From the IMG/VR virus record IMGVR_UViG_3300036900_000129, positions 1 to 57,729 of that record: a DNA stretch of 57,729 nt, one strand, 5' to 3'. The translations under genes were made by a program, and so were the position numbers. The notes beneath the pieces were generated by a model. That model saw only the letters and a program-made list of their open reading frames with translations. It had not been told where the DNA came from and made no database searches. The stretch comes from a virus (Duplodnaviria > Caudoviricetes). Positions 1,506 through 55,636 of this stretch are shown piece after piece; positions within the stretch are counted from its first letter, which is position 1; every line of letters begins with the position of its first letter.

Positions 1506-1668
1506 GTCCCGCACCGTAACATCTGCACGCATCCCTCCTGGCACATGTGAGGTGTGAGGTACCACGGGCGTAAGTGCTTCACCTGCTGGGTTTCACCAGG
1601 CCGTGTCATACCCGACAATGGCAGGAGCGACCGGTAAGATCCCACATGTGAGAGAGAGGTGACACCTG

Positions 1669-2043: not shown

Positions 2044-2053
2044 CATCCCAGCT

Positions 2054-2098
2054 GCGGGCGGCTCCTGCTGTAACGCCCGCCAGCACGGAGCCGCCCGC
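2054..2098 (+). terminator. Hairpin terminator
   Basis: gcgggcggctcc / ggagccgcccgc stem right after the stop codon. Confidence 0.6.
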
Positions 2099-2248
2099 GC
2101 AACTTGCCGTACCGTTTCGGTCAACGAAGTGCTGATGCGCCTGGGCTTCATGGCATGATGTGAGCCAAGTGCGGCCCCGCCTAGCGGGCGCAGGTTGGGG
2201 CCGCACCCATGCGCCCGCATACCCACACCTGACGTGGAGGCGGCGCGC

Positions 2249-2905: not shown

Positions 2906-2906
2906 C

Positions 2907-3185
2907 ATGGCAGTGATCAGCGGCAAGCAGGTCAAGCGGCTGTTCTACGACGGGCAGGCCGCGATGATGGCCGTCTACGTGGTGCGGAACGTCAACACAG
3001 GTGACACCCTGGACCTCGGCCCGTCCGGGCTGGGTGACTTCCTGAGCGTGAAGCAGTCAGCCATGGTGGCGTCCACCGTCGCCGGGTCCGCGACGGCCCA
3101 GGCGGCAGGCACCGTCATCACGATGCCGGCCGGCCTGACGAACGACGCCCTGTACCTGATGGCGTGGGGGGACTCCGCACTGTAA
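2907..3185 (+). CDS. Small structural protein
   Basis: Tightly packed in the fibre operon; beta-rich composition. Confidence 0.6.
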   Translation: MAVISGKQVKRLFYDGQAAMMAVYVVRNVNTGDTLDLGPSGLGDFLSVKQSAMVASTVAGSATAQAAGTVITMPAGLTNDALYLMAWGDSAL

Positions 3186-8036: not shown

Positions 8037-8326
8037 TGGTCCTGGCCACGTCATCGGAGTACGTTTTCGTGCCGCTGGACGGCCCGCCTGGGCTGGACCT
8101 GACGCAGTTCGATGTGAGCCTGGCGTTCGTCCCGGATGACGGGGCCGGGACGGAGCCGGACACTGACGCGTACTCGTCGGCGTCGTGGATTGGCGGGGAG
8201 GCGGCGCTGATACCGAACCCTGGCCTGGCGGCTGGCCCGTACCTGGTGTACGCGCGGCTGGTTGCGCCTCCGGAGGACGTGCGGCTGCTGTCGGGGCGGC
8301 TCCGTGTCGGGGACACGCGCACGTGA
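8033..8326 (+). CDS. Small beta-sandwich virion accessory protein
   Basis: AGGAG RBS, ATGA overlap; GPYLVYARL..PE motif seen in phage fibre-associated proteins. Confidence 0.55.
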   Translation: MMVLATSSEYVFVPLDGPPGLDLTQFDVSLAFVPDDGAGTEPDTDAYSSASWIGGEAALIPNPGLAAGPYLVYARLVAPPEDVRLLSGRLRVGDTRT

Positions 8327-8399
8327 AGGGCCGGAACGTGCTGGTGCCGGGCGGCATGATCTTCGTGTCATGCCTGGTGCTGCTGTACCGCCGCTACAG

Positions 8400-10822: not shown

Positions 10823-10923
10823 CGGAGTACCTGATGCGCTGACACGCTGCTGTGGCGTATGCTGCCCCGCAGGAACTAGTGGCTGTTCCTGCCGTCTGAC
10901 GCCCGCCTGGCGGCCCCGGGCAC

Positions 10924-23600: not shown

Positions 23601-24334
23601 TGGTCACCGCGCCTGTCTCGAAGATCGAGGGGCTGGTCAAGAGCAAGATCGTCGGGCCGATCACGTCGTTCCTCAAGAGCCTGGTCACGACCGCGCCTGG
23701 CACCACCAGGGCTGGCGTGTCCAACGCGTCGGCGCTGGCTGCGCTCCAGTCCGCAGCTGCCAAGCTGGGGTGGACAGGTGCTGAGTGGGCGGCGCTGAAC
23801 AACGTGGAGATGGCCGAGGCCGGCTATAACCTCACCGCCACCAACCCGCAGTCGGGTGCGTACGGCATGGCCCAGTTCATCCAGGGTGCAGCGGAGTACG
23901 CGCAGTACGGCGGGGACAGCACTACGCCGGCCGGGCAGGCGACCGCGATGGTCAACTACATAGCCCAGCGGTACGGCGACCCTATCGCGGCGTGGGCTCA
24001 TGAGCAGCAATTCCACTGGTACCGGAAGGGCGGGGCGATTGGCCGGCCGTGGCGCAGGTACGCCAACGGCGGCGGCATCCCTGAGCCGGTCATCGGGCTG
24101 GGTGCGCGCAGCGGCGCAGGATACGAGTTCCATCAGGGTGAGGAAGTGGCCAGCACCGCGAGCCTGGCCCGCACCAGCGACCAGTTGGAACGGCTGATCA
24201 ACGCGGTTAACCAGCTGAACGGCACGACCGCAGGGGTGGCACGCGGGGTTGGCCGCAGCGTCGGCGGCGCACTGAACCAGACGGCAGGAGACGCGTCGTT
24301 CGCGTCCCGTTACCCACGAGGGGCTAGCTGGTAA
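20663..24334 (+). CDS. Tape measure protein with C-terminal lytic transglycosylase-like domain
   Basis: 1223 aa, Trp-periodic repeats, EAGYN..ATNPQSGAYGMAQF..YI..RYG motif. Confidence 0.93.
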   Translation: MAALADTFLRLRVDSTQVQKDVSAGVKKAAESSDATSAGQKVGNLFASGFKQVMSVALAAGLTVGITAAFATAIKGASEFGASMEMVHTQAGASQASVESLSKSILALGGKVQQTPVELANAMFHLKSVGLDDADAMKALQTASNLAAVGGANLEDTTNALAGAWRSGINGAQSFSQAAGTVNAIIGAGNMRMQDFVSAIGTGILPAAKSFGLSLSQVGAALALMTDEGIPAVDAATRLRMSFSLLAAPSGAADKQLAKIGLSGLDLANAMRSPSGLIGAISLLKQHLDASGLSAAKQSILLSQAFGGGRSSSAILTLLNNLTVLKQKQDQVNSSTGKYGPAVAAQQKTAAAQFAMLRSLAETVGIELANYLVPPLSVFAGLLARNIVPAFHEVGQLMSATVGYIKPVYALLRGNATALLAVAAAATAAFTAFRLFSLAQVAYAAVSGGIVAAINAVKFAMFALQYAFVTNPVGILILALVALGAALVVLWERSSTFRNIVEGAWRAVEAAALSAWNNGIKPAVNGLITAYHAILAAWGTVASFFTGVADAVIGAFDRIKNFVTSSFDNWWKINGDAIKELWQGLWQDVEAIFTPVWDFITIVLRTGWALIVGMFQTDWLIISTIWNTGWAVISAVARTTWNLIVIDARTAWGMITAIFSTAWAVIQAAWSAGWTTLKAIFDVFWSAVETVVKVAWDVIVGLFGIAINLLTGHWHDAWLDLQNMVIQVWNAINAFLRTALGAAESIMQAGWNAIDTSARAVWNGIQSFFGAWWNGVRATFSTAVSGIGAVLSAAWNGISRVAQDAFNGLKSALATVWGGIKAVLESPIVAVVNAVINPFISGIDTVLSWVGLPGIPKIPGLAAGGMVHAMIGGGRLPGYGGGDRRLIMAEDGETVVSKSTSRAMAPLFSIFGVPGYAGGGIIGDIIGAIPGASAVVDAAKFVSGDVLSALNFISNAASSIGAAVGSGHWASVVGQVAEKVVTAPVSKIEGLVKSKIVGPITSFLKSLVTTAPGTTRAGVSNASALAALQSAAAKLGWTGAEWAALNNVEMAEAGYNLTATNPQSGAYGMAQFIQGAAEYAQYGGDSTTPAGQATAMVNYIAQRYGDPIAAWAHEQQFHWYRKGGAIGRPWRRYANGGGIPEPVIGLGARSGAGYEFHQGEEVASTASLARTSDQLERLINAVNQLNGTTAGVARGVGRSVGGALNQTAGDASFASRYPRGASW

Positions 24335-27300
24335 TGGAAAGCCTGGTCCTGAGTGACATCGAGCTGCTGGCCGGCGGCGTGCCGTCCACCAACCCGATGT
24401 GCACGGGCGCGATCTTCCGGTTGCTGCCCGGTTTTGACCCGGGGGCACCGCAACCGGACACCGACATGGTGGCGAGCCTGCTGCTTGACGGCGAGCTGAA
24501 CACGGGGGACCGGGCCAGCAACCGCACCGTTGAGCTGCCGGTGTGGATCACCGCACCTGACCGTGACACCCTCGCTGGCGCGCAGGAGCACCTACAGCAG
24601 GTTATCGACCAGGCGATGTGGACGCTGACGTGGGCACGGGAACGTGACACCACGGGCGTGCTGCCGCCGTTGCCGCTGGTGTTCGACTGCCAGCGGGCAG
24701 GCGCAACGTCAGTGGACGCGAACCTGATACGGGAAAAGCAGTTCAGCCGGCGCCTCACCATCAAGTTCCCTGCTCTCCCGTACGGCAGGAGCGACGTTCA
24801 GCAGGCACTGCGGTTCGCCAGCCCGGTGCCGTCCGGGCCGCCTGCCCCCCCGTCGCCTGTGGTGATCGACAACTATGGCACTATCAGCAGCCCCGCGTGC
24901 TCCCAGTCGAGCCTGCACGTGGTCGGCCCGAACAGCTGCGCGTACGACCCGGACGGTGTGCTGGTCAACGACCCTGGCGGGCAGACCACCATGTTCACCT
25001 ACACCGCCGTGCTGGGCAGCCAGCTGGACCTGACGGGGATGGCCAGCGTCCAGGTGTTCCTGGGGCTCGGTTCCCGCTGGTACCAGAACCTCCGCTACCA
25101 CGGCCAGGACGTGTTCCGGGTCACCCTGACGCTGACGGACGCCAACGAGAAGACGGTCAGCCTGACCAGGAACGACCTGATCCTGCCCGTCTCGCCGCTG
25201 CCGAACAGCCCCGTGTTCAGTCCCGTGACGCTCCGCATCCCGCCTGCAAGCACCACGTTCTCCTACACCAACGTGGCCAAGTACACCCTGACGGTCACTA
25301 ACCATCACCGTTACTCCGATCATCACCTGCGCTGGGTGACGCTGTACGTGGACGCCCTGACCGCTTACCCGGACACCCAGACGGTAGCCCCGGTGACACG
25401 GGGCAACGTCATCACGATGTACAACCTGCGGGGTACAGCCAGGGCGGCAATGTCAGCGTCCTTCACGCAGCCGCCGTCCCCGGGCACGCCGACGACGGTC
25501 ACCGCAGCCGGGCTGGGAAGCTACACAAGCCCTGTTGGCGCAGCCTGGATCAAGGTGGAGGTTGTCGGCGGCGGCGCCCCGGGCGGCAGCCGCACCACAG
25601 CGGGGATGGGCGGCGGCGGCGGCGGCGCCGAGTACGCGCGTGAGGACGTTTTCCCCGTTAACAGCGCCGGGGAGGTCATCAACTACTCAGTCGGCACAGG
25701 CGGGACCGCCGGCGCGACGCCAACAGACGGGCAGCAGACCAGTTTCGGGCCGGGGTCGCAGTCAACGATGACGGTGACAGCGAACGGCGGGCGGGCAGCG
25801 CAGCAGAACAGCACAGCCGGGGGGCTCGGAGGGACCGGTTCCACTAACAGCGTGCATCATGACGGCGGCAAGGGCCGGGATGCGACAGGCTCGTTCGGCG
25901 GCGGCGGCGGCGGGTCAGGCGGTTCCAGCAGCCCCGGTAACACGCCCCTGGGGTCAGCGAGCACTTCCTATACCACGGCTGGCACCACGTCGTTTACCGC
26001 CCCGGCTGGCGTCACGCAGGTGTACGCGGAAGCATGGGCCGGGGCCGGGTCGGCGGGTACCGGGTGGAACGGCGGCGGCAACGGGCAGGGCGGCGGCGGC
26101 GGCGAGTACGCAGCCGCGTACATCCCCGTCACCCCCGGTAACAGTTACACCGTCGTCGTCGGTGCCGGCGGTGCAGCGGTAACCGGGTCGCAGCTCAACG
26201 GCAACAGCGGCGGGAACAGCTCATTCACCGGTGACGGCGGGCAGGCGGTGACCGCGCACGGCGGCGGCCGGGGCCTGGCAGCTAACAACACCAGCAGCCC
26301 GAACAACGGCGGTACCGGTTCCAGCAACACGGTCCACTACAACGGCGGGTCAGGCGGCCCGTCTAACCCGTACGGCGGCGGCGGCGGCTCGTCAGCTTCA
26401 CCGTCCGGTCCCGGTAACCCTGGTGACGGGTACAGCAACGCGGGCGCTGGCCCTACAGACGGCGGCGCTGGCGGGCGCGGGTCCGGTGCGACAAGCAACA
26501 ACGGGTCGAACGGAACCCAGCCGGGCGGCGGCGGCGGCGGCACGTACCTCCCGGCCACCTCTGGCGCCGGCGCACCCGGGAAGGTCCGGCTTACCTTCCC
26601 GGGCGGCAGCCCGGACCAGTTCGGTGCCCCGGCTGTGACCGGTGGCGGTGCGGGCGGGAACGGCGGGGCGACGGCTAACTCAGCCGGCTCAGCTGGTGCG
26701 CAGCCGGGCGGCGGCGGCGGCGGCGCGAACAGCACGGGCACCGCGGAAAGCGGCGCAGCCGGCGGGAACGGGAAGATCACCATAACCCCGTACACGCCTG
26801 CGGCCTTCAAGTCGCTGCTGGTGCACCGGCCGCCGCGCGGGGCCAGCAAGTACTTCCAGCCGCTCGTATCGGTCGGGGCTGGCGCGGACGTGCCGAACGG
26901 GAGCACCTGGTACACCTTCCCGCAGCCGGTAAGCGGCGTGAACGCGCGGCTGAGCGGCACGTTCACCTGCTACCTGATCAACAGCAGCTTCAACGGGTCA
27001 GGCAGCCGCACGGTGACGGTGACGTTCCGGCAGACGGAGTACACAGGCGGCCCTACCTACACCACGCCCACCGTCCCGGTGTCGTTCACGCCGGCGTCGA
27101 TCGTCAACGGTGTCCTCATGGCCGGGACGGTGACGCTGCCGGTGAAGAAGATCCCACCGGACAACACCCAGGCCAGCTTCGCGGTGAGCGTCACTGACAC
27201 CAACACGAGCGACAGGTGGCTCGACCTGATCCTGGTTGACAGCCTCGGGCAGCTCGTGTTCATCAACGAGCCCACCACCGGCTACCCCATCTACTACCTG

Positions 27301-27531
27301 GACGCCCCGAACCCGGACCGCAGGCTGGGGGACATCCTGGGCTCCCAGAGCGACCGCAGCGCAGCGGTGAGCGTGATGGACCAGATGACCGCCTGGTCAG
27401 GCGGGCCGCTGTCGGTTGAGCCGGCGGACGGGCAGAACATGCTGTTCGTCTACTGTCCCGGGGCGCTGGCACCCAACGTCGGGGTCACTTACTTTGACAC
27501 CTACTACTTTGACCGGACGAAGGAGAGCTAG
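24334..27531 (+). CDS. Minor tail protein with glycine-rich domains
   Basis: Follows the tape measure; two GGGGGxEYA modules and poly-Gly tracts. Confidence 0.85.
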   Translation: MESLVLSDIELLAGGVPSTNPMCTGAIFRLLPGFDPGAPQPDTDMVASLLLDGELNTGDRASNRTVELPVWITAPDRDTLAGAQEHLQQVIDQAMWTLTWARERDTTGVLPPLPLVFDCQRAGATSVDANLIREKQFSRRLTIKFPALPYGRSDVQQALRFASPVPSGPPAPPSPVVIDNYGTISSPACSQSSLHVVGPNSCAYDPDGVLVNDPGGQTTMFTYTAVLGSQLDLTGMASVQVFLGLGSRWYQNLRYHGQDVFRVTLTLTDANEKTVSLTRNDLILPVSPLPNSPVFSPVTLRIPPASTTFSYTNVAKYTLTVTNHHRYSDHHLRWVTLYVDALTAYPDTQTVAPVTRGNVITMYNLRGTARAAMSASFTQPPSPGTPTTVTAAGLGSYTSPVGAAWIKVEVVGGGAPGGSRTTAGMGGGGGGAEYAREDVFPVNSAGEVINYSVGTGGTAGATPTDGQQTSFGPGSQSTMTVTANGGRAAQQNSTAGGLGGTGSTNSVHHDGGKGRDATGSFGGGGGGSGGSSSPGNTPLGSASTSYTTAGTTSFTAPAGVTQVYAEAWAGAGSAGTGWNGGGNGQGGGGGEYAAAYIPVTPGNSYTVVVGAGGAAVTGSQLNGNSGGNSSFTGDGGQAVTAHGGGRGLAANNTSSPNNGGTGSSNTVHYNGGSGGPSNPYGGGGGSSASPSGPGNPGDGYSNAGAGPTDGGAGGRGSGATSNNGSNGTQPGGGGGGTYLPATSGAGAPGKVRLTFPGGSPDQFGAPAVTGGGAGGNGGATANSAGSAGAQPGGGGGGANSTGTAESGAAGGNGKITITPYTPAAFKSLLVHRPPRGASKYFQPLVSVGAGADVPNGSTWYTFPQPVSGVNARLSGTFTCYLINSSFNGSGSRTVTVTFRQTEYTGGPTYTTPTVPVSFTPASIVNGVLMAGTVTLPVKKIPPDNTQASFAVSVTDTNTSDRWLDLILVDSLGQLVFINEPTTGYPIYYLDAPNPDRRLGDILGSQSDRSAAVSVMDQMTAWSGGPLSVEPADGQNMLFVYCPGALAPNVGVTYFDTYYFDRTKES

Positions 27532-35794: not shown

Positions 35795-38700
35795 GTGATG
35801 TCCTGCACCCTGCTCCTGGCGGCCTCCCGCAGCCGGTTAGCGACCACCTCCCGCACCGTGTCGTCGCCGGCGTCAACACCCAGGTCAGCAAGCATGCGCT
35901 GTAGCGCCGCCGCCAGGGTCTCGGCCCGCTGCTCCAGTTGCTCAGGTGCCGGGTCACCGGCCCGCTCGATCACGTACCGGTCCCCCGGCTCGATCACGTG
36001 CGGGGCCTGCACCATGCCGACCAGCGCACGGGCCAGGCCCCGCTGGTCGGTGGTCTGCACGTACCGGCCGCCGTCCGCCGTGCACAGCGTGAACAAGAAC
36101 TGGTTGTCATCGTCAGGTGGTTCGGTGATGCTGTCGATAAACGCAGCTACCCCCGCCAGGAACGCCGTCTGTGCCTGTTCCGCCATCATGACCTGCTCCT
36201 GCTGCTGCACCCGCATGGTGTGCGTGTCGGCAACCTGGGCGATGCTCGGTGCCATGCGCAGGGCGATGAACTCAGCCAAGGCAGCCGGCTCAGCCTCCTG
36301 CCATGGTGTTCCCTCGGTCTTCGTCCACTTCGCCAGGCAGATCCGTACGCCGCCAGCGATGGCCTCACGCAGGTCTGTGCTCCGCACCATGACGGACGGT
36401 GCTGCCTCTGGCTGCGGCAGCGGGTACCTGTGCGCCCACTGCTCGAACGCCACCTGCGGATTCCACGTGACCGCCCCCTGCGGGTGCGGCGTGTAGAACA
36501 CCAGCGTGTACGGGTCACCCTGCCTGATCAGCAGGTGCACCCCCGCCAGGCGTGTCCCGTGCGGTACCTCCGGTAGGGCACTCAGCGGAATTTCGCCGGG
36601 CTCCCGTTCAGCGAACACGACGCTTGCCTCAGCGGGCCGGCCGGTCTCGAACCGGATCACCTGCCCGTCCGCGAGCACAGCGGTAAACCGCACCTGTAGC
36701 GCCTCAGCCAGGACACCCTGATCATTCATCGCTGCTCTCCTCACCGGCCAGGTGCTCCCTGGCTAGCCGTTCCACCTCAGCCCAGAATGCGTCGGTGGCG
36801 TTCTGCTCCCAGGCGCCGATCATGTCGGGAAGCGGCAGATCATAGCTCCATTCGACATTGAGGTCAGCCAGGAGTTCGTCTTCACTGCTGGCCGGTTCCT
36901 GGTCGGCCAGCTCGTCCTTGGCTGGGTCGCCGTCCTCAATCCACTTCAGGACCGTCCGGTAGGTGCGCTCGGTGGTCTTACCGTCGAACACCCACGACGC
37001 GGCGTCCTTCCCCGCGTCCACGCCGAGCGCGGCGGCCCTGGCGATCAGGTCTTCCTCCCGGGCGGCAGCAGCCAGGGTGAACAGGTCAGCGGTCTTGAGG
37101 CGGAATGCCACGGTGCGTCCTCCTGCGGTAACCCAGGCGCATGCGGACTCACCCAGCCCGTCCCACTCCACGCAGAGCAGGGTCGGTAGCCCCTCAGCCC
37201 GGCCTGGTTCCTCGGTGACGGTGATCAGCCGGTGCCCTTCGGGGGTGTGGTCGTCTGTGGTGCTCATGACGTGATCCCCTGCCGTTCCCGCTCAGCGGCT
37301 TGCGCTGCTTCACCGTGGGTGCCGGCGAGGCGTTCCGCAGCGCACCAGGGGCAGCCAGGTGCGAAACCGGAATGCTCGTCGCAGTGCACCGCGTACCGGA
37401 CGCCGTCGCGCCAGCCGGCCCGGTACTGCGGGAAGCCGGGATCAGACCATGCGGGCTTACCGCCGTTGAGCCTGCGGAAGTAAGCTGCGCACTCACGTTC
37501 GGTGCCGGTGTCTCGGCCTTGGAGCCACTGGCGGGCGAAGGCGTGCATGTTCCGGATGGCTACCTGGTGATACCAGGCGTCCAGGAGCGCTGACCGTTCG
37601 TCGGCGGCAGCAACATGATCGAGCTTCCCGTAACTGGGGTCCAGGTCAAGCAGTGCAGTGAACGCCAGGCTCGGGTCCAGGTCAGTCGGTTGCATCGGGT
37701 TCTCCTAGTCGGCGCAGGCGCGGGACGTCATCGAAGGGCTGAGATGATGGTGCTTCCGGGGTATCCCCTGGTACCGGGGTCAGGATGATCTCGTCCACGG
37801 GCAGGTCAGTGACCTTGGACCCCCAAAAGGTCGCCACGGTTGCCTGCTCGGTGTCCAGCGGCCAGCATGCGCCGTTGACCAGGACGGTGGCGCTGACAAG
37901 CTTCATCAGGCCGCTTGGCTCACGCCGGTAGGTGACGTTGATGCCTTCCAGGTGCAGCAGCCGCACAGCTAGCGGCTGCTCGTTGAACAACGGGGTGATC
38001 GGGTCTTGCACTGGTGTTCCTCTCTCGGTTTGCGCGCGGTTTGCGCGCATTGCTATTCCCTGATGGCCTGGTCTACGGGAACCAGCCCGGCCAGTTGCAC
38101 GATCTCGTCGTTCACACGGCCACCGGTCAGCGCGTAGTACGCCTCCACGAACGAACTGAACGCGGCCGGGTCAAGCGGCTGCGCGTCACGGAACCGCTGC
38201 GGCAGCTCACCCCCGGCCGCTGCTACCAGCCGGTCGTAGGCGTCCTGTAGCTGCGCCTGCCACTGGCTGGCCAGCCTGACCACGACCATGTGCTGCTCTG
38301 GGTCAACGTGCACGGTGCTTTCCTCCTCTTTGCCTGGCCGGCTTCCCGGTCAGCCGTGCGCGTGCACGCCTGCACAGGTTGCCGGCGATCATGGCGATCT
38401 CGGCGTACTCCTCCCAGATCGTCCAGCGGGCCGCCTCTGCCTCCTCAGCACGCCAGGCGGCTTCCTGGTCCAGCACCTCCCGCATCGCGTCCTCACGGCT
38501 CATGCCGCCCGCAACGCGGTCCTCGATAGCCTGCTGCACCAGCACGCGGTCCCGGTAGCTTCGCGTGCTCACGGTGCTAGCGCTTCATCGATGGACTCCT
38601 GCCGATACGGCTGAATCTGGGCGGCGCAGGTCGGGCAGATGCCGTACCTGTGCTCGCGCCCGTCCTCGGGCATCGATGTGACCGCGTAGCCGGCTTCATG

Positions 38701-38966
38701 CCAGCGGCGCATCTCAGCTTGCGCGGCTTCAACGAACCGCCCGTTGGCTGACCCGTTGTCCACGTGCACGACTGTTTTCATCCTGCTGCCTCGGCTTCCT
38801 CAAGAACCGCCTCAACCTTGGCGGCGTCGTAACCCAGCCAGCCTGAGTCATGGTCACGGTGCTCATGCTGGTGCTGGTCTACGTTCTCGCTGTGCGGCCG
38901 GGCGATCGCCATCGGGTCGCAGTGAACACCGACCAGGTGCAGCGCTAGCTCCTCCGCTTCGGTCAT
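35791..38966 (-). CDS. Eight hypothetical genes (35791-36729, 36722-37267, 37264-37695, 37682-38011, 38053-38313, 38303-38572, 38569-38781, 38778-38966)
   Basis: Translationally coupled ORFs with RBSs; no family recognised. Confidence 0.7.
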
Positions 38967-39991
38967 CCTGCTGCCTCCTCCTGCCCGACCACCTTGAAGC
39001 GGTCACGGCGCATCACGTCGTTAACCCGTCCGATCGGCACGACCCGGCCGTTGCGAGCGAGGTACGCCACCACGTCCGCCGCCGCCGGCTCGCAACCCTG
39101 CTCGCTTCGCAGTGTTGCGAGTGCGAGCCTGATGGCCGCGGACTGTGAGCCGTGCCCGCCGCCGTTCGCAACAGGTGCGAGGGGCCGGCTCGCATTCGCG
39201 GTCGCACCCGCGCTCGCAGCGCTCGCAAGCGGGCTCGCGCTCGCACTGGCGGTGAGAGCAGGCCGTTCGCTGCTGCTCGCAACCGCTCTCGCAACGTCAC
39301 TCGCAGCAGGCACCGGCCGCTTGCGAGCACCCGCATTCGCTGTGCTCTTTGCGAGCCGCTTGCGAACAACCGCTCGCAGTTCCTTGATCGCAGTCCACGG
39401 TGCGCCGATACCCGGCACCCATACCAGCAGCCCGAACGGCGGCAGGGGTTCCACCCTGGCCTTGGCGTCATACCCGTGCTGCGCGCGTCCCACGTCGCGC
39501 CTGGCGGCCCCCAGGATGGCATGGGCCATCCAGTACACCATCACGCTCATCACGGGGAAGAACAGCTCCTCAGCCACGTTCCCGGACCCCAGCGCGCCAC
39601 GCCAGTTGATGAACGCTGACAAGCCCACCAGGACAAGCGCCATCAGGCGGAACTGGGCACCGCTCTCACCCTTCTCAATGCGGTCGAGTGCGAACCCGTA
39701 CACGACGATCGCTGCGATGTCGAGTGAGAGCGGGCCGAGAAGCGAGTGCAGCTGCGACCAGCGCAGGTCACCCTTGAAGAATGCGAGCAGCCCTGAGAAC
39801 GACATCGCTGCGACTGCGAACACCACCGTTGCGAGCAGTGCGAGCGTTGCGACTCGCCGTGCGCGGGTGAGAGTGCCTGCGGGCAGTGCGAGCGGTGCGA
39901 CTGGCTCGCTCGCGCTGCTCGCAACATCCGGCTCGCTCGCATTCTCATTCGCACTCGCAGGTACCAGCCGGCGCGAGAACCTGATCTTCAC
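38963..39991 (-). CDS. DUF2637/Spd-like membrane protein with C-terminal HTH-like domain
   Basis: About 4 TM helices (AMSFSGL..PLSLD..SAFINW..P), Ala/Ser linker, helical basic C-terminus; AAAGGGG RBS before GTG. Confidence 0.75.
   Translation of the reverse strand: MKIRFSRRLVPASANENASEPDVASSASEPVAPLALPAGTLTRARRVATLALLATVVFAVAAMSFSGLLAFFKGDLRWSQLHSLLGPLSLDIAAIVVYGFALDRIEKGESGAQFRLMALVLVGLSAFINWRGALGSGNVAEELFFPVMSVMVYWMAHAILGAARRDVGRAQHGYDAKARVEPLPPFGLLVWVPGIGAPWTAIKELRAVVRKRLAKSTANAGARKRPVPAASDVARAVASSSERPALTASASASPLASAASAGATANASRPLAPVANGGGHGSQSAAIRLALATLRSEQGCEPAAADVVAYLARNGRVVPIGRVNDVMRRDRFKVVGQEEAAG
39050..39960. repeat. Dense dispersed TCGCA/TGCGA motif array
   Basis: About 35 copies counted by hand, in two clusters and both orientations. 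Confidence 0.85.
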
Positions 39992-40013
39992 TGGTGCGTT
40001 CCCCTTTCTTTGG

Positions 40014-40688
40014 TTAGTGGTCCCAGTCGCGTTCGCGGCCGCTCTTGTCCGCCTGCGCGTCCCAGGCATCTCGGATGCGCGGGTCTTCCGCAGGCGGGTT
40101 CTGCTCAGGGTCGGTGTTGCTGGCCGGGTCAGCCCAGCCGGGCAGCTTCGGCATGATGCTCCTCAGTGGGTCTCGTTCAGGCGTGCGATGAACTGGCGTG
40201 TGGTGCCGTTGTCCTGGGTGACGGTGACCATGATGACTGAGCCGCTGGCCGGCTCCCCGGACACCGACGTGATGCAGGCTGGCCTGACCGGCTCAGGTGG
40301 CCTGTCAGGGCTGGTGACGAACGCATGGTGCAGGGTGGCGGCAACCCAGCGGCGCACGGGGTCCATGCTCTCCAGTTGCTTCAGGCCCTCCCGGCTTGGC
40401 TTCCGGTTGATGTCAGCCTTCACCGGCTGGCACCTCCTCAGCCTGCGGGGGCTCAGGGTGCAGCGTGATCAGCTCATCACGCATCCGGCTGGTCAGCTCG
40501 TGGTAGCCCTGCTGGTCGCTCTCAGGCATCGCTTCGAGTGCTGTGCGCCATGCGATGCGGGCGGCGTCGGTGGCCTGTTCCAGTTCCAGGATGGTGCGGT
40601 AAGCCTCAGCGGCTTCCTTGCCCCTGGCGGACAGGCGTGAGGCGTGGCGGGCGGGCCGGGTCTTGGCGGTGCCCTTCGGGTCGGTCAT
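40014..40688 (-). CDS. Three hypothetical genes (40014-40154, 40163-40423, 40413-40688)
   Basis: GGAG RBSs; 40014-40154 is a 46-aa ORF not in the track. Confidence 0.6.
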
Positions 40689-40703
40689 CTGGTGCTCCGT
40701 TTC

Positions 40704-41108
40704 TTAGTAGAGCCGCTTGAGCTGCAACTGGTACGCCTTCACCACGGCGTCCACGGTCTCAGCGGTTGTCCCGTACTGCACGGCGACCCGTGCAGGACTG
40801 TGCCCGTGCATGAGCACGCCCTCTGCGACGGCTTGCTTCCAGGTGGCGGTGTGGTTTTCCCAGCCGGGCTCGATCCGGGCGGCGACCGCGCGCAGCGCAC
40901 AGCGGCGCACCCAGTCGCGGACCTTGTTGAACTCGTATCCGGTGGCACCGTCGCCGTTGATGACGGCGTTCACGGTGTCAAGCATCCGGTCGGTGCTGGG
41001 TGCGGTGCCGCGCTCAGGTAGCTGGCGTGTCAGCACGAGCGCGGCCAGCAGGTCCGCGTCGGCCTGGCCGGTGCTGCGGCTGGCACTGTAGTGGCGTGTC
41101 GTCGGCAT
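40704..41108 (-). CDS. Putative HTH DNA-binding protein
   Basis: C-terminal SPARVAVQYGTTAETVDAVV. Confidence 0.55.
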   Translation of the reverse strand: MPTTRHYSASRSTGQADADLLAALVLTRQLPERGTAPSTDRMLDTVNAVINGDGATGYEFNKVRDWVRRCALRAVAARIEPGWENHTATWKQAVAEGVLMHGHSPARVAVQYGTTAETVDAVVKAYQLQLKRLY

Positions 41109-41133
41109 TTTCGGTTTCCCTCTCTCAAGCGCT

Positions 41134-41161
41134 AACGCTACCACGTACACGTTGGTATTAG
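41134..41161 (-). promoter_or_regulatory. Extended -10 promoter with operator variant
   Basis: Minus strand taataccaACGTGTacgTGgTAGCGT. Confidence 0.55.
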
Positions 41162-42188
41162 CGGGCTGCTGCGATGTCGGCCTGCTCGTCCACCAGCGTG
41201 CACCCGCAGGACAGGGTGGCGTAGGAGCAGCGCCCGCCGGCGTACCCGCTGTAGGTGCCCCACGTCATCACGTTGGCCTGCACCGCGTGGGTGCCGCACC
41301 ATTCAGCGGCGGGGCTCATGTCGCAGCATCCGGGGCAGAATTCGTGGACGATCTCCATGCAGGACTCGTGGATGCATCCGCCTGGGTCTTCGGGGTGATT
41401 GCTGGTGGTGTGCCAGTACGCGCACAGAGGGCCGGTGTGGCAAGTGTGGTTCTCCGTAATGTCGGTGGTCCAGTCTTCCCAGCCGCCGTCCACGGTGATG
41501 CCCAGGGCTGCGGGGCTGATGACCCAGTAGCCGCCGCAGCCGACCGCTACAGCGCCGTTGACGAACACGTGACCGAGCGGGTCGGTGCCCTCGCGCACTA
41601 GGGTTTCGCATTCCGGGCAAGTGCTGGTACGCCAGCGGGCGATCGACGGCGCGTCTGCTGCGCGCGCCGCGTCCAGGTACTCGGCTTCGGTGTAGGTGCT
41701 CATCGCGGGTTCCTCTCATACCGGCCGCTGATCGTGGCGGCAACACGGGCGTTAACGGTGTTGATGCGCGCCTGGCAGGGGTCGCATATGGCGACTTCGC
41801 CTACCTGCTTGCGCGCTGCGGTGTCGGGGTTGGCGTCGAAGACGGGCTTCGGGTCTGCTGCGTTGGTGCAACCGCGCATCTGGCAGGTCATCGTCGCTGT
41901 CCCTTACACCAGGCTCAGCGCTGCGTGCTGCGCGTCGGACTTGAGCGCGTGGTGGTCAACGACCTCGCCGTACACCAGCACGTCCCAACCCTTACCGTTG
42001 CAGGTACCGTTGGTGACCTGGATGCCGTCCACCACGTCGCGGTAATGCTTGCTGTCCTGCGCACCTACGATTTCGTAGGTCATCAGGTACAGGTTGCCCT
42101 TGGCGTTCCGGGGGCCGTTGAACCCGTTGTAAAAGTGGCTGGTCCAGCGCACGTCCCCGTACCCGTTCAGCTTCGGTGTGGCGCTCAT
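41158..42188 (-). CDS. Three hypothetical genes (41158-41703 Cys/His-rich, 41700-41891 Zn-finger-like, 41904-42188)
   Basis: RBSs, coupling, CxxC motifs. Confidence 0.65.
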
Positions 42189-48009: not shown

Positions 48010-49797
48010 TCAACCACCATGCTCAGCCATGAAGAACACACCTGAAGCGCACACCTGGTCACCCGTCACCTCAGCCAGGCCGTTGCTGCGCAGCGTCGAC
48101 AGGTAAGACCCGAACGTGCCGCCGCCCTGCTCGATCCCGGCCGCCTCGGCAAGCTCAGCGCGGCTGACGCTCGCCGGGTACACGGCCAGCAGGTGGTCAA
48201 GCATGGCCCGTGCGCCGGCCTTGAGCGCGGACCGCCACTGCTCACGGATCTCTGCGGCAGTCATCGGCTCGCCAGGCTCAACCCCGGCAGCGGCAAGCCC
48301 TGCCGGGGTGATCAGTACCAGGCCGTTTTCCTCGGTGATCAGGCCGTTAGTGCGGAGCGCGGAGAAGTAGCTGCCGAACGTGCCGCCTGACTTCTTGACG
48401 CTGCCAAGGGTTGCAAGTTGACCCCGGGTGACCTTAACCGGGTGCTGGCGGGCCAGCGCGGTGAGCATCCGCATTGCCCCGGCCTTGAGGTGCGGCACGT
48501 TACCAGATGCAGGTTCCTGCCGCGCCGCTCCCGGCGCAGCACGCGGACGCACAACTGGCGGGCGGGTCATGGTTGCAGCAGCAGGCCGGCTGACCTGGGC
48601 GAGCGCCAGTTCGATACCCCCGGTGATGTCCCGAAGGCCCGTGACGGCTTGCTCAAGCGCTGCCATGTCACCAGGGGACAGGACGGGTACCTCAATGCGC
48701 TCAGGCGGCCGGGCACGTTCGGCATTCAGCTGATCCGTCAAGGCGGCGACCTGCGCCCGCAGCTCAGCGGCCTCTGCCGGCTGGCGGGTGGCCAGTTGCC
48801 GCTCAAGCTCACCGATACGCCGCCGCAACACTACCGGGTCGTTGACTTCCGCTGCCTTGATAAGCGCGTCCATCCGCTTCAGGAGAGCACCCAGGTTGAT
48901 GTCCGCCAGTGTTGCGGGACGCTGCGCCCGCCTGGTCATGGTCGGGGTGGCACCGGAATCGAAGGTGCTGCGCTGCCTGAACTTGACGCGCTGAACCGCC
49001 GGCTGCCCGTGCCGCACCAGCCATTGCGGGGAGATCACCCAGCCTTCACCGTCAGCAAGAGACGGCAGCGACTCGACTATCTCCCGGCTCTGCGCATGGT
49101 AGTCAACCCATGCCTTGATGGCGGCCCTGTCCTGCGGGCTGGTAGTACGCATGGCGATCAGCGTTTCCGCTTGCGTCAGCACGTCCTTGTTGACGACTGC
49201 GCTGCGCTGGCTGAGCAGCGTCACCCCGAGACCGAACGAGCCGCCTTGCTTGACCAGCCGGGACCAGACGCCGACACACCGCGTCTGGTCCTGCATCACC
49301 CGCTGGGGCAGGTACTCGTCGGCTTCCTCAAGGAACAGGTGCCGTGGCTGCGGGTCCTTACGGTGCAGCCTGAACAGGTGCTCACCGAAATCCGCGAGGA
49401 ACCGCATCTGCGCGGCCTTGGACGGGAAGTCAGACACGTCCAAGATGCACGTCAGGTTCTCCGCGACGATGATCTCCGCGATGAGGTGACCGGACTCGGG
49501 TGTAAGCGGCAGGTCACCATGCAGGCCGCCGAATACCGGGACAGCCAGCCCGGGGCCCTGCCCGTCACCGGATGCCCGCAGCCCCCACCAGTCGCCTTTC
49601 GGGTCGATGGCCGCCCACGGCAGCCGTGCGTAGTACATCTCCTCAGCGAGTACCGCCCCGGTGTTCGACTTCCCGGCCCGCCTGACAGCAAGGATCGCCG
49701 CTGACTGCGTAACCATGTCAGCTGGGAGAGTCAGGGTCAGCCCCATGTTCAGGCTGCTGCGCGCCTGCACCGTTACAGCCTTGGCTTTAGCGGGCAT
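48010..49797 (-). CDS. HerA/FtsK-superfamily ATPase (DUF87/DUF853-like) with coiled coil and two winged helices
   Basis: AVRRAGKS, IDPKG, LFLEEAD and LSQR motifs; duplicated LKAGA..GGTFGSY.S.LR.NGL. Confidence 0.8.
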   Translation of the reverse strand: MPAKAKAVTVQARSSLNMGLTLTLPADMVTQSAAILAVRRAGKSNTGAVLAEEMYYARLPWAAIDPKGDWWGLRASGDGQGPGLAVPVFGGLHGDLPLTPESGHLIAEIIVAENLTCILDVSDFPSKAAQMRFLADFGEHLFRLHRKDPQPRHLFLEEADEYLPQRVMQDQTRCVGVWSRLVKQGGSFGLGVTLLSQRSAVVNKDVLTQAETLIAMRTTSPQDRAAIKAWVDYHAQSREIVESLPSLADGEGWVISPQWLVRHGQPAVQRVKFRQRSTFDSGATPTMTRRAQRPATLADINLGALLKRMDALIKAAEVNDPVVLRRRIGELERQLATRQPAEAAELRAQVAALTDQLNAERARPPERIEVPVLSPGDMAALEQAVTGLRDITGGIELALAQVSRPAAATMTRPPVVRPRAAPGAARQEPASGNVPHLKAGAMRMLTALARQHPVKVTRGQLATLGSVKKSGGTFGSYFSALRTNGLITEENGLVLITPAGLAAAGVEPGEPMTAAEIREQWRSALKAGARAMLDHLLAVYPASVSRAELAEAAGIEQGGGTFGSYLSTLRSNGLAEVTGDQVCASGVFFMAEHGG

Positions 49798-50834: not shown

Positions 50835-51878
50835 GTCTGTACCTCCCCGGCTGGGAGCGGCCAAGCGCCCAGGCAGCCAGCGCCGCCGCCACCGGAGTTA
50901 GGACCACCCGGGGCACCGTCGATCCCCGTAGAACCGTTCGGGCACAGGCCGCCGTGCCCGCCTTCCTCGGTTGCCCCGCAGTACGCGCAGGGCGGGGCGT
51001 CCGGGTCACGGCCATGCCCGCCGCCACCTAGGGCGATGCCGTAATGGTTCAGCATCTCTTTCTGCCGGGCCACGCTGATCCCGTGCTCGGTGGCCTGCGC
51101 GCACCATGCGCGGATGATCCGCTGCAACTGCACCGCGCGCTCGTCGCCGCCCTCGGCCTGCCAGGCGCGGAGGAACGCGGCGATCTTCTGGCTGTCCTCG
51201 GTCTCGGTCAATTGGGTCTCCTCACTGATCTTGTCGGCCTCGCCAGCCATCGCATACAGCGCCCACCTGGTCGCCGCAATCGGGTACAGGTCCGGCGTAA
51301 GGCCGTCAGTGGAACGGAACTTGCTGACAGGGATCGCGTCAGCGCCTGCGCGGAGTACCCGCGCCCACTGGGCCGGCGTCATAGCGGCTCGTCCAGTTCG
51401 CGGACTACCTCGCCGTAACCCTGGTTAGTGATCGCGAACTTGATGAAGCCGGGGTCACCGAAGACCCGGACGACGTAGCAGCCGTCCACCTTCGTGTAGT
51501 CGGGTGCCCCGACGACGGCGGCGCGGCCTAGCTGCTGAACGGTCTGGTCCAGCATGGCGGGGTCCTCGGTGCGGACGAGGATGTCGGTTGCACGCGGCAC
51601 GGTCATGGGGCATCCTCGAATGTCACGGTGTACGCGGTGAGCGGCCGGTTCGGGCGGTCGTCGTCCCGCAGCGGGACGGTCACCGACTGGGCCCGCCACG
51701 CCTCGAACGCGGTCATCATCGACGCGAACACCAGCGCTTCACACCGGTCCCGTGTCCAGATGGCATCCCCGCGTCCCTCGCGGGCTTCCAGGTCGTACGC
51801 CTTGAGGTACTTGCCTTCCAGGCCGGGCAGCGGACCGCCTGCGCAGCGGATGACAACTGGTTTAGTCATGCTGCTCAC
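50831..51878 (-). CDS. Three hypothetical genes (50831-51382, 51379-51606, 51603-51878)
   Basis: Coupled ORFs. Confidence 0.65.
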
Positions 51879-52812
51879 CGGTATCTGCGGCCGGCGGAAG
51901 AACAGCGGTCGGCGTGAGCACGCCTTCCTCGTCGTCTTCGGCTGAGCCGATCATCGCGGGGTTGCTGCCGGGCAGCGGGTCAGACTGGGCGGCAGCCAGC
52001 GCCGCCGCCATCTGGTACTGGTACTCCGTGGAATGCGGCACCTGCCCGTACAGGCGGCGGATGCTGGTCTTCCGCCACATCATGTGGGTGTCCTTGCCCT
52101 CGGCGGGCCAGGCCGGTCCCCAGAACCCGTCACCGCCCTGGCGGGCTGCCGCTGACCTTGACCGGTATGACAGCACCTCCTCCACGCCCAGCACCACCGG
52201 CTGCGAGTGCCCGCCGGCGGTCATCGCCGCGCACGCCCACACGCCGGTCAGGAACCCGCGCTTGGACTGCGAACCGAGACCGCGCTGGTTGTACTCGTTG
52301 GCGGGGATCTCATGGAACGGCACGTCCAGGCCCGGCTGCCAGTCGAACTTGTCATGCTGCCGCACCACGTGACAGTGGACAGCGGTGACCGCGCCCGTGC
52401 GGTACACCATTTCCAGCATCCCCTTGTAACCCACGATCGGGCTGATGCTGTAAGTGCCCTTGTCCGGGTTCGGCTGGTTCCCCACCTTGTCCCGGTTGTC
52501 CCGGTAAGGGACCATGTAGAACTGGTCGGTACCCGGCACCAGGCCCAGGCGGGCGCACTCAGCCAGGGCGGTGAAGAACGTGTCGGGGTGCTGCCACAGC
52601 GCCATGTGCAGCTGGGGGCTGCCACGGCGGATCGCGGCGATGCCGAGCTCCACGAACTGCACCGCGTCCACGTGCTGCGGTGCTACCTTGTCGAACCAGC
52701 CGCGATGCTGCCGCACCTTCTCCACGGCCAGGTCAACAGCCTTGGCCATTGCGCCTTCACGGGGGGTCTGCCGCTGGGTGGCGACGGCACCGCGGATTGT
52801 GTTGTCAGGCAT
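51862..52812 (-). CDS. recT: RecT-family single-strand annealing protein
   Basis: CARLGL.P..YMVPY..VGYKGM..YRTG..D.F..MWRKT.IRR. Confidence 0.9.
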   Translation of the reverse strand: MPDNTIRGAVATQRQTPREGAMAKAVDLAVEKVRQHRGWFDKVAPQHVDAVQFVELGIAAIRRGSPQLHMALWQHPDTFFTALAECARLGLVPGTDQFYMVPYRDNRDKVGNQPNPDKGTYSISPIVGYKGMLEMVYRTGAVTAVHCHVVRQHDKFDWQPGLDVPFHEIPANEYNQRGLGSQSKRGFLTGVWACAAMTAGGHSQPVVLGVEEVLSYRSRSAAARQGGDGFWGPAWPAEGKDTHMMWRKTSIRRLYGQVPHSTEYQYQMAAALAAAQSDPLPGSNPAMIGSAEDDEEGVLTPTAVLPPAADTGEQHD

Positions 52813-54345: not shown

Positions 54346-55446
54346 TCAGCGGCCCAGCTTCATCCACCGCTGGCCGGGTGCCCACTTGTCCACGGGCGTC
54401 TTCCTGGTGTACCTGGCGGCGGTCGCGGGCTCATGAGCGCGCAGTTCGCCAACGTCGATGGTCTCCATCTCGTAGGTGCTGCGGTTCAGCACGTTCACGT
54501 CCTTGCCGGGCCGCTCAGGGTCGGGGACCACGATGTGCTGCGCGCCGCCTGCCTTTTGAGCCAGCTGGTTCTGAAGGAGCCCGTACTTCCGCTCGGCCCG
54601 CTTCATGGCCAGGTACGCGCTCTTGAGCCGGCGGGCGTCCCGCAGCGTGGCCCGGTAGCTGGTATCCGGCTGCATCGGCGTCAGGGTGCGCAGCGCACGG
54701 GCCGACTCGGGGCTCCAGTCGAGATCCGGGGCGTCGCCCCTGGTGAGCCGGTCAAGGAACGCTGCGGCCTCCTTGACCATCAGCTCCATGTCCTCGGCGG
54801 CGTCAGCGGTGCGCTGCACCACGTACAGCTCCGTCTTCCACGACCCCATGAACTGGACCGGCACGTACACCGTGTCGGAACCCCAGATCATCATCTGCCA
54901 GTACGCCTGGGCCTTGTAGTGGACGGGGATCTGGTCGGAGTACGGCTCACCCCACAGCAGGGTTCCGTCGATGTCGTGGCGGCTGATCGCGGTCTTGGCC
55001 TCGACCGGGACCATCATCGCTCGCAGCTCGTCACGCAGGGCAGGGTTCGTGTCGTCGTCGGGCACGCTGGTGCCGAACAGCGGCAGGCGGGCACCTGCGG
55101 TGTCACGGCTGACGGCGAAGCGGTCGTAGCTCGCGCTCATCCACGGGCAGTCGGCGTCACGGTACAGGCCGCCCGGCAGCACCATCAGGTCCGGGCGCAT
55201 GTTGGCGAACTGGGCGGTGACGTAGGATTCCAGTACCCGGCCGCGTTCCATGTCGTCGTTCTCGTCGTTGACGCGCTCACCGGTTGTCTTCTCCACGTAC
55301 AGGCTGAACGGGTTGCCGTGGGTGCGCGGCGCGATGCCGAGCAGGACGGCGACCTCCGATGACCCGATGCTGGCTTCCCGGTAGTCCTCCCACTCGTCCG
55401 GGTGCCTGGCGATCTCGTCGGCGGTCATGAGCAGCTTCGCTGCCAT
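54346..55446 (-). CDS. YqaJ/RecE-like exonuclease
   Basis: IGSSEV..MERG..LE..ASYD..VEAKT..Y.AQ..WQM; same operon as RecT. Confidence 0.88.
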   Translation of the reverse strand: MAAKLLMTADEIARHPDEWEDYREASIGSSEVAVLLGIAPRTHGNPFSLYVEKTTGERVNDENDDMERGRVLESYVTAQFANMRPDLMVLPGGLYRDADCPWMSASYDRFAVSRDTAGARLPLFGTSVPDDDTNPALRDELRAMMVPVEAKTAISRHDIDGTLLWGEPYSDQIPVHYKAQAYWQMMIWGSDTVYVPVQFMGSWKTELYVVQRTADAAEDMELMVKEAAAFLDRLTRGDAPDLDWSPESARALRTLTPMQPDTSYRATLRDARRLKSAYLAMKRAERKYGLLQNQLAQKAGGAQHIVVPDPERPGKDVNVLNRSTYEMETIDVGELRAHEPATAARYTRKTPVDKWAPGQRWMKLGR

Positions 55447-55636
55447 TGGTGGCCCCTCTCTGGTTGCCAGTGGTTTCCATGTAACCACTACTGTACGGGA
55501 TACCCATGACATTCGGGGTGACTGGGGTACTGGCGTGTTGCCGCTGGCAGCATCCCCGTACTGGGGTTATCATGGGCAGCGGAAGTTCGGTGGTCCGCGA
55601 ACCAGGCTCGCGTCATCGGTGCTCCCCTCTCAAGCG

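Follow-up and report, generated by a model that had tools for sequence, protein, structure and literature searches.

A dense array of a short, lineage-dependent DNA word inside the gene of a DUF2637-type phage membrane protein, with a possible role as the protein's own binding sites

The window analysed here is the whole 57,729 bp stretch of a viral record. On its minus strand, positions 38963–39991 hold a gene for a 342-residue protein described as a DUF2637-type membrane protein with a C-terminal three-helix domain, on the basis of the ORF list, Pfam, phrog_10376 and homologues that exceed the Pfam cut-off. The start codon is a GTG at 39991, the ORF is open up to an ATG at 40069, and a Shine–Dalgarno-like sequence read directly from the DNA, GAAAGGGGA (40000–40008, minus strand), lies 8 nt upstream of the GTG. 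Two further minus-strand genes bear on what follows. A conserved neighbour gene of 148 codons (40704–41150) has an HTH-like C-terminus that is nearly invariant among four syntenic phages, and a gene at 48010–49797 encodes a P-loop ATPase of HerA-like type, whose C-terminal part has two winged-helix-like repeats in tandem at about residues 430–595. This ATPase is a candidate alternative reader of the array described below. A promoter scan of 38000–41500 returned no sites and an Rfam search no families. Two metatranscriptome runs gave a sole contig of 175–180 nt at 38554–38733; since this lies outside the gene, it is silent on the gene's expression.

The gene contains 35 copies of TCGCA or its complement TGCGA, spanning 39052–39959, which agrees with the approximate count of an earlier sequence-only reading. 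As that reading had also described, the copies form two blocks with an empty middle: a 5′ array of 15 copies (39689–39959), coding for the N-terminal tail and membrane helices 1–2, and a 3′ array of 20 copies (39052–39392), coding for the post-membrane helix, the disordered linker and the first half of the C-terminal domain. None occurs in the stretch between them (39393–39688), which codes for the most conserved membrane core. With the gene counted separately, the remaining 56.6 kb of the window has 64 copies, or 1.1 per kb; the earlier guess of about 2 per kb was too high. TCGCA/TGCGA was the top-ranked 5-mer of the gene in an unbiased k-mer scan (Poisson p ~1e-37). The same scan bore out that the 5-mer is often part of a longer word, (G)CTCGCA(A), of which the full form in the window is GCTCGCAA: CTCGCA was found 22 times inside the gene and 8 times outside, GCTCGCA 17 versus 5 times, and CTCGCAA 10 times versus none. 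Both orientations and several codon phases are used. The gene strand carries 18 TCGCA and 17 TGCGA, and two orientation/phase classes hold 14 copies each, with the other 7 distributed over four classes. That the two orientations are nearly equal in number points to double-stranded DNA, not mRNA, as the target. Site spacing is irregular (6–44 bp) and without an iteron register, and the first site is 32 nt past the start codon, within the transcribed gene body.

The enrichment persisted when synonymous codons were shuffled with the protein held fixed. In 5000 within-gene synonymous permutations the count had a mean of 6.55 (sd 2.13, maximum 15), and in 5000 resamplings with phage codon usage a mean of 3.7 (sd 1.6, maximum 13); in neither control did any of the 5000 shuffles reach the observed 35. 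The constraint therefore acts on the DNA, as had been proposed. TCGCA is present at 35 of the 70 positions open to it by synonymous choice, and CTCGCA at 22 of its 35 permitted positions. When the same top-hexamer test was applied across the window, this gene gave z 13.9 (n 22), compared with z 1.6–5.2 and n ≤ 9 for 21 other ORFs. The further claim that the word forces codons which are rare elsewhere holds in part: GCA makes up 20 of 72 alanine codons, against 14% in a comparison set of 15 long ORFs, and CGA 3 of 35 arginine codons against 2.8%. In the motif-free middle, TCGCA has 5 permitted positions and uses none (P ~0.02 at the rate found elsewhere); because merely 5 positions are available, the gap largely reflects protein constraint. 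The array lies mainly in parts of the protein that tolerate sequence change, namely the N-terminal tail, membrane helices 1–2 and the disordered linker, and the amino acids of the linker follow the word, with Leu-Ala and Ala-Ser in the window and Val-Ala or Asp-Ala in relatives. Among the 16 NNCGCA hexamers, CTCGCA has the lowest count outside the gene; its 8 copies compare with 13.7 expected by a Markov-4 and 25 by a Markov-3 model, and dinucleotide shuffles predict 51 ± 7.7 for the whole window, so that the depletion is mild and model-dependent.

The encoded protein is membrane-embedded, as the sequence-only reading had proposed, with four hydrophobic segments that correspond to four long helices in the AlphaFold2 model (residues 38–74, 80–106, 112–131 and 139–171; together residues 38–171, 39479–39880, minus strand). 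The distribution of charge (K+R counts) suggests an N-in/C-in topology, which would place the C-terminal domain in the cytoplasm. This domain (residues 283–341, 38969–39145, minus strand) follows a disordered, Ala/Ser-rich linker with a pLDDT of ~40 (residues 239–280, 39152–39277, minus strand), and is modelled as three helices, with pLDDT 88–97 in the whole-protein model and pLDDT 88.4 and pTM 0.72 when modelled alone. Its fold matches all lay below significance (best E 0.51), but among the 45 listed about 36 were DNA-binding domains of the sigma, LexA, Fur/Zur, PadR, ArgR or MntR type, mostly HTH or winged HTH. Other searches with the C-terminal part returned little: a PDB profile search gave nothing meaningful (best E 0.13), Pfam on 13 members nothing below E 0.08, NCBIfam no match, and a protein-language-model Atlas search with residues 272–342 no usable match.

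Of the proposed likeness to DUF2637 and Spd proteins, the DUF2637 part found support. Pfam DUF2637 (PF10935) matched residues 75–233 of the long ORF at 22.6 bits (E 1.1e-4), just under the gathering cut-off of 22.8, while the homologues L002 (52% identity) and L012 reached 39.9 and 38.5 bits; by transitivity, membership of the window protein is plausible. Its top viral fold match was a DUF2637 protein (probability 0.99), and a whole-protein fold search in PDB gave nothing significant. The Spd part found none at the level of sequence. Alignments of 25 sequences and of the C-terminal domain, compared with pIJ101 SpdB by hhalign, gave a probability of 0.1%, and pIJ101 SpdB itself was also without a Pfam match. 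The window protein shares with SpdB and SpdB2 the architecture of a four-helix integral membrane protein. As a lead only, a protein-language-model search placed it near clusters annotated with PF27079 (HTH_SpdB_C) and PF27080 (SpdB_N), with scores of 0.90 and 0.89. A tra/spd module beside an FtsK/TraB-like gene, the setting of spdB genes, was present in L012, L017, L020 and plasmid pPR2, but not in the window or in the related record G001.

We examined 19 homologue loci with DNA available (L002–L018, L023 and L024), scoring a locus as positive when its top in-gene hexamer exceeded the null maximum. The check proposed earlier, for a different self-enriched word in each homologue, gave a positive result, with seven positive loci and words that differ by lineage: GTCGCA in L002 (n 19, z 9.0; 19 in the gene versus 7 in 11.6 kb of flank), L016 (n 6, z 6.4), L017 (n 8, z 6.0) and L024 (n 21, z 13.7, together with GACGCA at 12 versus 0), GTCGCG in L003 (n 22, z 7.0), and GACGCA in L006 (n 19, z 6.5) and L023 (n 17, z 6.3; 18 versus 3 in the locus scan). 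The other 12 (L004, L005, L007–L015 and L018) had no clear in-gene array, and some of them had clusters beside the DUF2637-type gene instead. In six dense genes 44–65% of the permitted hexamer positions are realised, and in six genes the array ends at the gene borders. Sites in L002 and L006 are mostly in one orientation. Synteny, with 6–10 neighbouring genes in common, links the phages of the window, L006, L023 and L024, which indicates that the word changed within one phage lineage while the array stayed. Between L006 and L023 (76% protein identity), 10 of 18 sites occupy homologous positions and the number of sites hardly differs (18 and 17); at identical residues the third codon position is the same in 27 of 29 cases within sites, compared with 175 of 247 elsewhere (Fisher p 0.006). 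The array is thus real, lies at the DNA level and is conserved.

More distant homologues occur in actinomycete conjugative elements, where an FtsK/TraB-like translocase gene follows directly downstream, and in four conjugative-element loci (L011, L012, L014 and L017) a GTCGCA cluster bridges the two genes, from the 3′ end of DUF2637 into the TraB-like gene at its 5′ end. The DUF2637 gene of plasmid pPR2 lacks an array, and a tight cluster of GACCGGA is separate from it; in pNO33, 28 of 30 GGCACA copies are spread over the DUF2637 gene and the one that follows. The plasmid searches matched 3, 1 and 6 records, pJV1 not among them. No cultured-phage relative was found among 50,697 phage records by blastn (2 kb) or tblastn (two proteins), and two scans of representative bacterial genomes found no relative. 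A relative of roughly 90% identity, seen in sequencing run X3, differs by 9-nt in-frame indels, one of which inserts a TCGCA unit; among the differences listed, none of 10 substitutions hits a TCGCA core (P ~0.05, a hint).

The array word tracks residues of the C-terminal domain, a link that the sequence-only reading had proposed to test: variable residues at the start of helix 3 differ where the word differs. Helices beginning GR-V accompany CTCGCA, RR-V or QR-V accompany GTCGC(A/G), and SS-V accompanies GACGCA, with identical helices and the same word in L006 and L023. The HTH-like helix of the neighbour gene at 40704–41150 is nearly invariant while the array word differs. The helix-to-word pattern amounts to about three independent changes and has exceptions, since in L024 a QR helix goes with both GT and GA words, and helices of several kinds are found with GTCGCA.

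These observations make it highly probable that the array is a set of protein-binding sites, so that the gene would double as a cis-acting array of short recognition sequences. The reader is most likely the gene's own product, a four-helix membrane protein presenting a cytoplasmic three-helix domain on a flexible linker of ~45 residues; we put the claim that this C-terminal domain reads the array at a little short of an even chance. With many membrane-anchored copies bound to the array, this part of the phage DNA would be held at the membrane. Loading in cis would be favoured, because a membrane protein probably enters the membrane while transcription and translation of its gene are under way, and its own gene would then be the nearest DNA. 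Membrane attachment could in turn hand the DNA to an apparatus for translocation, spreading or segregation, which matches the position of distant homologues upstream of translocase genes. A role in tethering or spreading is accordingly put forward only tentatively. With similar reserve, DUF2637-HTH proteins may be viewed as one-gene DNA-to-membrane anchors, in which the gene is both factory and address and the word and its reading helix drift together; phages of mycelial actinomycetes might have acquired such anchors from conjugative elements and use them to keep their DNA at membrane or cross-walls, or to move it along these and so through the mycelium.

Several precedents exist, so that the earlier statement that nothing of the kind had been described was too strong. 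The passages of Thoma et al. 2014 on sps (PMC4170104) report, from EMSA and from synonymous recoding that separated what the DNA does from what the protein does, that pIJ101 SpdA2 binds a palindrome (sps) in its own coding region, that the sites constrain the encoded peptide, and that the system has a role in stable inheritance. The likeness is that sites lie within the gene of an actinomycete mobile-element protein that binds them, as we infer for the phage gene. As described there, however, sps is a 12-bp palindrome present 2–3 times in the gene of a small soluble protein, whereas the word in the phage gene is 6–8 bp long, non-palindromic and lineage-dependent and has about 35 copies, and the protein encoded there is a membrane protein with four helices. 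The clt loci, according to the sections on them in PMC4447253 and PMC3583192, consist of 7–9-bp repeats, sometimes overlapping the tra gene, and are read by the HTH domain of a membrane-bound protein. Like clt, the phage array is a cluster of short repeats with element-specific words, and distant homologues of its gene adjoin TraB-like genes. Unlike it, the array is larger and more scattered and no TraB-like gene was found in the record; clt as described in these sections is compact (~50–180 bp), has 4–9 mostly direct repeats, and lies beside genes more than inside them. The text on SpdB2 in PMC4447253 reports non-specific binding of double-stranded DNA; it also mentions SpdB2 homologues in the actinophages phiC31 and VWB and suggests that these aid the spreading of phage DNA. 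As a site that ties DNA to the membrane, the array would resemble the clt/Spd machinery of actinomycete conjugative elements. Our searches of the main texts of the open literature gave no account of motif arrays within DUF2637 or spdB genes.

In the strongest alternative, rather unlikely in our estimate, a DNA-pumping ATPase would read the array as a loading site of the clt kind: the FtsK/TraB-like translocase in conjugative relatives and, in phages, either the HerA-like ATPase at 48010–49797 or the TraB of a resident host element that mobilises phage DNA in trans. The relevant sections of PMC4447253 and PMC3583192 describe binding of Streptomyces clt repeat arrays by the TraB winged helix, and the passage in PMC3429521 on mobilisation allows it in trans through clt-like sequences. 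A translocase reader fits the four loci in which the cluster reaches into the TraB-like gene equally well, and the pNO33 repeat GGCACA resembles the pJV1 clt repeat CCGCACA as given in the published excerpt. Homologues of the HerA-like ATPase were present in two of three related records searched, G001 (63% identity) and G003 (48%). Yet the complete 128-kb record G001, like the window record, yielded no TraB-like gene; BLASTP showed no relationship between the phage ATPase and TraB (E 0.72); and the recognition helices of the ATPase's winged-helix repeats hardly differ between the window, with CTCGCA, and G003, with GTCGCA and GACGCA. A separately encoded reader also leaves unexplained why the array ends at the gene borders in six genes, and the ~900 bp of scattered sites differ from the tight clusters described for known clt, a type that pPR2 does have.

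We consider it improbable that the array is a replication origin within the gene of its initiator, with the membrane protein bringing in the replisome of the host at the membrane. Phage origins typically have their sites within the gene of the protein that binds them, as with lambda ori in gene O; pac sites, too, are embedded in small-terminase genes. If its product is the reader, the phage gene would resemble these in carrying its binder's sites, partly in a linker-coding stretch. No initiator, polymerase, primase or helicase was recognisable among the 31 window ORFs scanned, although replication genes may merely be missing because the record is 79% complete. Lambda ori and pac, however, have few sites (4–7), set in a fixed register beside an A+T-rich or cleavage region, unlike the dozens of irregularly spaced sites here; no A+T-rich stretch is present (G+C 0.62–0.74 across the gene), the GC skew has no turning point, and distant homologues lie in transfer rather than replication modules. 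Of similarly low probability is a main function in autorepression, in which bound protein would stand in the way of RNA polymerase and so limit the level of a potentially toxic membrane protein. The position of the sites in the transcribed gene body would suit this, and the regulation section of PMC4447253 notes that tra/spd genes of Streptomyces plasmids are toxic when unregulated, but a roadblock needs far fewer than thirty-five sites, clusters in L011, L012, L014 and L017 reach neighbouring genes, and autoregulation could be a side effect of membrane anchoring rather than a rival to it. Very improbable is an array without binding function, as a by-product of low-complexity coding and replication slippage or as an mRNA-level signal (folding, or an RNA-binding factor). 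The linker is indeed Ala/Ser-rich and of low complexity, the indels of the X3 relative fit slippage, and mRNA folding is somewhat better than in shuffles, but its z-scores (−1.63 and −2.61) are modest and hairpins are not the common cause because L002 and L006 have mostly one orientation. Furthermore, 15 copies lie outside the low-complexity region, in the conserved membrane-helix and N-tail part, the two orientations are about equal in the window, different lineages have different words at the same saturation, and synonymous positions are conserved inside sites between L006 and L023.

Whichever protein reads them, these arrays are a strong and easily searched signature of cis-acting sites in actinomycete mobile elements. 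If the array is read by the membrane protein that it encodes, DUF2637, a large family without assigned function in actinomycete plasmids, AICEs and some phages, would gain a concrete and testable activity, and the natural series of word and helix variants could be used to derive a recognition code. The finding would bear on how phage and plasmid DNA is positioned or moved in mycelial bacteria, an idea raised until now only for SpdB2 homologues in phages (PMC4447253), and the gene would be an extreme case of a coding sequence on which a DNA-level signal has left as strong a mark as the protein.

The 5-mer TCGCA/TGCGA occurs 35 times at 39052–39959 within the gene, compared with 64 times in the remaining 56.6 kb of the window, and ranked top in an unbiased k-mer comparison of the two. 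The actual word is longer than this 5-mer: copies in the gene and elsewhere in the window numbered 22 and 8 for CTCGCA, 17 and 5 for GCTCGCA, and 10 and 0 for CTCGCAA. Outside the gene, CTCGCA is the rarest of the 16 NNCGCA hexamers of the window, although the extent of its depletion varies with the background model chosen. The sequence-only reading had counted about 35 copies and suggested that the constraint acts on the DNA. Two controls kept the protein sequence constant: 5000 synonymous permutations within the gene gave 6.55 ± 2.13 copies (maximum 15) and 5000 resamplings from phage codon usage gave 3.7 ± 1.6 (maximum 13), both far below the observed count. Synonymous codon choice permits the 5-mer at 70 positions, and it is present at 35 of them. 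In a top-hexamer test the gene reached z 13.9 with 22 copies, while 21 other window ORFs did not exceed z 5.2 or 9 copies. The 5-mer is present in 18 sense and 17 antisense copies; two orientation/phase classes hold 14 each, the remaining 7 are distributed over four classes, and the spacing is irregular (6–44 bp), without register. As had been noted from the sequence, the middle of the gene (39393–39688), encoding the most conserved membrane core, is free of the motif; this stretch permits just 5 positions, so the gap mostly reflects coding constraint.

The family is small: a word-indexed search gave 8 clusters, and 1.84 billion proteins yielded 42 representatives with E ≤ 1e-3. DNA was examined for 19 homologue loci, and the expectation that they would carry different self-enriched words was borne out in 7, where the top hexamer exceeded the null set by those 21 window ORFs: GTCGCA in L002 (19 copies, z 9.0), L016 (6, z 6.4), L017 (8, z 6.0) and L024 (21, z 13.7), GACGCA in L006 (19, z 6.5) and L023 (17, z 6.3), and GTCGCG in L003 (22, z 7.0). 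No clear in-gene array was seen at the other 12, several of which are contigs of 1–2 kb; at L011, L012 and L014, GTCGCA clusters at the 3′ end of the DUF2637 gene and downstream. Homologue arrays stop at or near the gene borders (L002 has 19 copies inside and 7 in 11.6 kb outside; L023 has 18 inside and 3 outside), have the two-block layout of the window and use 44–65% of permitted positions. The L024 gene (3892–5119) holds two related words together, 21 GTCGCA and 12 GACGCA, the latter absent from 7.8 kb of flank; this double word may be an intermediate in word change, or its reader may accept G[T/A]CGCA.

The window, L006, L023 and L024 have 6–10 neighbouring genes in common, in identical order, and the array has therefore been kept in one phage lineage through word change (CTCGCA; GACGCA; GTCGCA with GACGCA). 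L006 and L023 have kept 10 of 18 sites in position, and the others have turned over with totals unchanged; synonymous positions were conserved in 27/29 cases within sites and 175/247 outside (p 0.006). The sites encode Leu-Ala and x-Ala-Ser in the window, Val-Ala in L002, L003 and L024, and Asp-Ala in L006, L023 and L024, tolerant parts of the protein being shaped by the DNA word. In a relative about 90% identical (run X3), a 9-nt insertion carrying a TCGCA unit and a 9-nt deletion were found against window positions 39164 and 39208; both are in frame and in the linker, so sites are apparently gained and lost as codon triplets. The array is real, conserved, evolving and acting at the DNA level.

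The gene (38963–39991, minus strand) begins with GTG, with GAAAGGGGA upstream, and its frame remains open as far as an ATG at 40069. The IMG/VR virus record is linear, 57,729 bp, with an estimated completeness of 79%; virion genes lie on the plus strand over roughly the first 31 kb, and beyond them comes a long block of minus-strand genes, mostly orphans. A RecT-family annealase (51862–52812, 80.7 bits) and a YqaJ-type exonuclease (54346–55512, 57.3 bits), both on the minus strand, form a RecET-like recombination pair, and a scan of 31 window ORFs revealed no recognisable polymerase, primase or helicase. CCGCCG/CGGCGG is also concentrated, at 25471–26535 (37 copies in about 1.1 kb, 225 elsewhere), within a 1065-aa ORF (24334–27531), and probably reflects low-complexity coding sequence for a tail protein.

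The proposed DUF2637 resemblance holds comfortably for the homologues, while the window protein itself scored 22.6 bits, slightly below the 22.8-bit Pfam cut-off. Membrane anchoring was upheld: hydropathy and the AlphaFold2 model both show four membrane helices (residues 38–74, 80–106, 112–131 and 139–171), then an amphipathic helix, a disordered linker (239–280) and a three-helix C-terminal domain, and the charge distribution places both termini in the cytoplasm. The C-terminal domain has pLDDT 88–97 in the whole-protein model and 88.4 (pTM 0.72) when modelled by itself. Sequence searches gave the domain no name, and none of its fold-search matches was significant (lowest E-value 0.51); of the 45 matches listed, about 36 are DNA-binding domains of HTH or winged-helix type, among them those of sigma factors, LexA, Fur/Zur, PadR, ArgR and MntR.

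Across the syntenic phages, three candidate readers were compared. The conserved neighbour at 40704–41150 is unlikely to set specificity, because its HTH-like helix is almost invariant while the words differ. A HerA-like P-loop ATPase (48010–49797, minus strand, 595 aa) contains a coiled-coil and, at its C-terminus, two winged-helix-like repeats in tandem (…GGTFGSY.S.LR.NGL…); the complete 128-kb record containing L002 (G001, 63% identity) and that of L024 (G003, 48%) encode homologues, and none was found in the half-complete record G002. The recognition helices of the ATPase are almost identical in the window and G003 despite different words, and differ in G001. In the 128-kb record, a 747-aa P-loop protein with a C-terminal IclR-type HTH is encoded two genes upstream of the DUF2637 gene (L002 2755–4998); pairwise comparison shows weak similarity (E 0.001) between its HTH region and winged-helix repeat 1 of the window ATPase. 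In the DUF2637 C-terminal domain, the start of helix 3 tracks the word (GR with CT, RR or QR with GT, SS with GA), and the domain is identical in the two phages with a common word. This pattern fits the suggested covariation and favours self-recognition, on about three independent changes and with L024 (QR with two words) as an exception.

The main rival is that a translocase or ATPase reads the array as a clt-like site. TraB reads clt loci of short, element-specific repeats (PMC4447253 and PMC3583192), and clt-like sequences possibly enable mobilisation in trans (PMC3429521 and PMC11571958). L012 and L017 are conjugative-element modules, running NUDIX-HTH, DUF2637-HTH, small membrane protein and FtsK/TraB-like ATPase in L012 and the last three in L017; plasmids NZ_CP109008 and pPR2 have this order. 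On plasmid pNO33, 28 of the 30 GGCACA copies in 8.3 kb lie at 1269–3010, across the DUF2637 gene (z 8.5 within it), a short spacer and the next gene; they are mostly CGGCACA, similar to the published pJV1 clt repeat CCGCACA. However, no TraB-like gene was found in the window or the complete 128-kb record, and the window ATPase is unrelated to TraB by BLASTP. The pPR2 DUF2637 gene has no in-gene array. That plasmid carries 7–8 GACCGGA tightly clustered in a 150-bp intergenic stretch (10759–10909), clt-like, and 12 iteron-like GGGGAAC near one end (13716–15057), and its DUF2637 protein has two tandem C-terminal HTH-like repeats. At L015, seven GGGAAC/CCCCCG-type repeats in about 220 bp (8134–8355), 2.4 kb downstream of the DUF2637 gene, are reminiscent of the pWTY27 GTGGGAAC iterons (PMC3583192).

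An origin, a purely autoregulatory roadblock, and a by-product of coding or RNA are each less likely. SpdB2 is described as a DNA-binding membrane protein with four helices (PMC4447253), and SpdA2 as binding a palindrome within its own coding region, where synonymous recoding of the sites altered plasmid stability (PMC4170104). In the main texts of the openly accessible articles searched, we found no description of motif arrays within DUF2637 or spdB genes; the sequence-only reading's claim that nothing of this sort is known nevertheless goes too far, as self-gene sites and clt arrays are precedents. The array is best read as a putative cis-acting protein-binding array whose reader is most likely the gene's own membrane-anchored product, and it represents a new, extreme form of these known kinds and no new category. 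By binding the array, that product would anchor this part of the DNA at the membrane, and this reading is open to direct testing.
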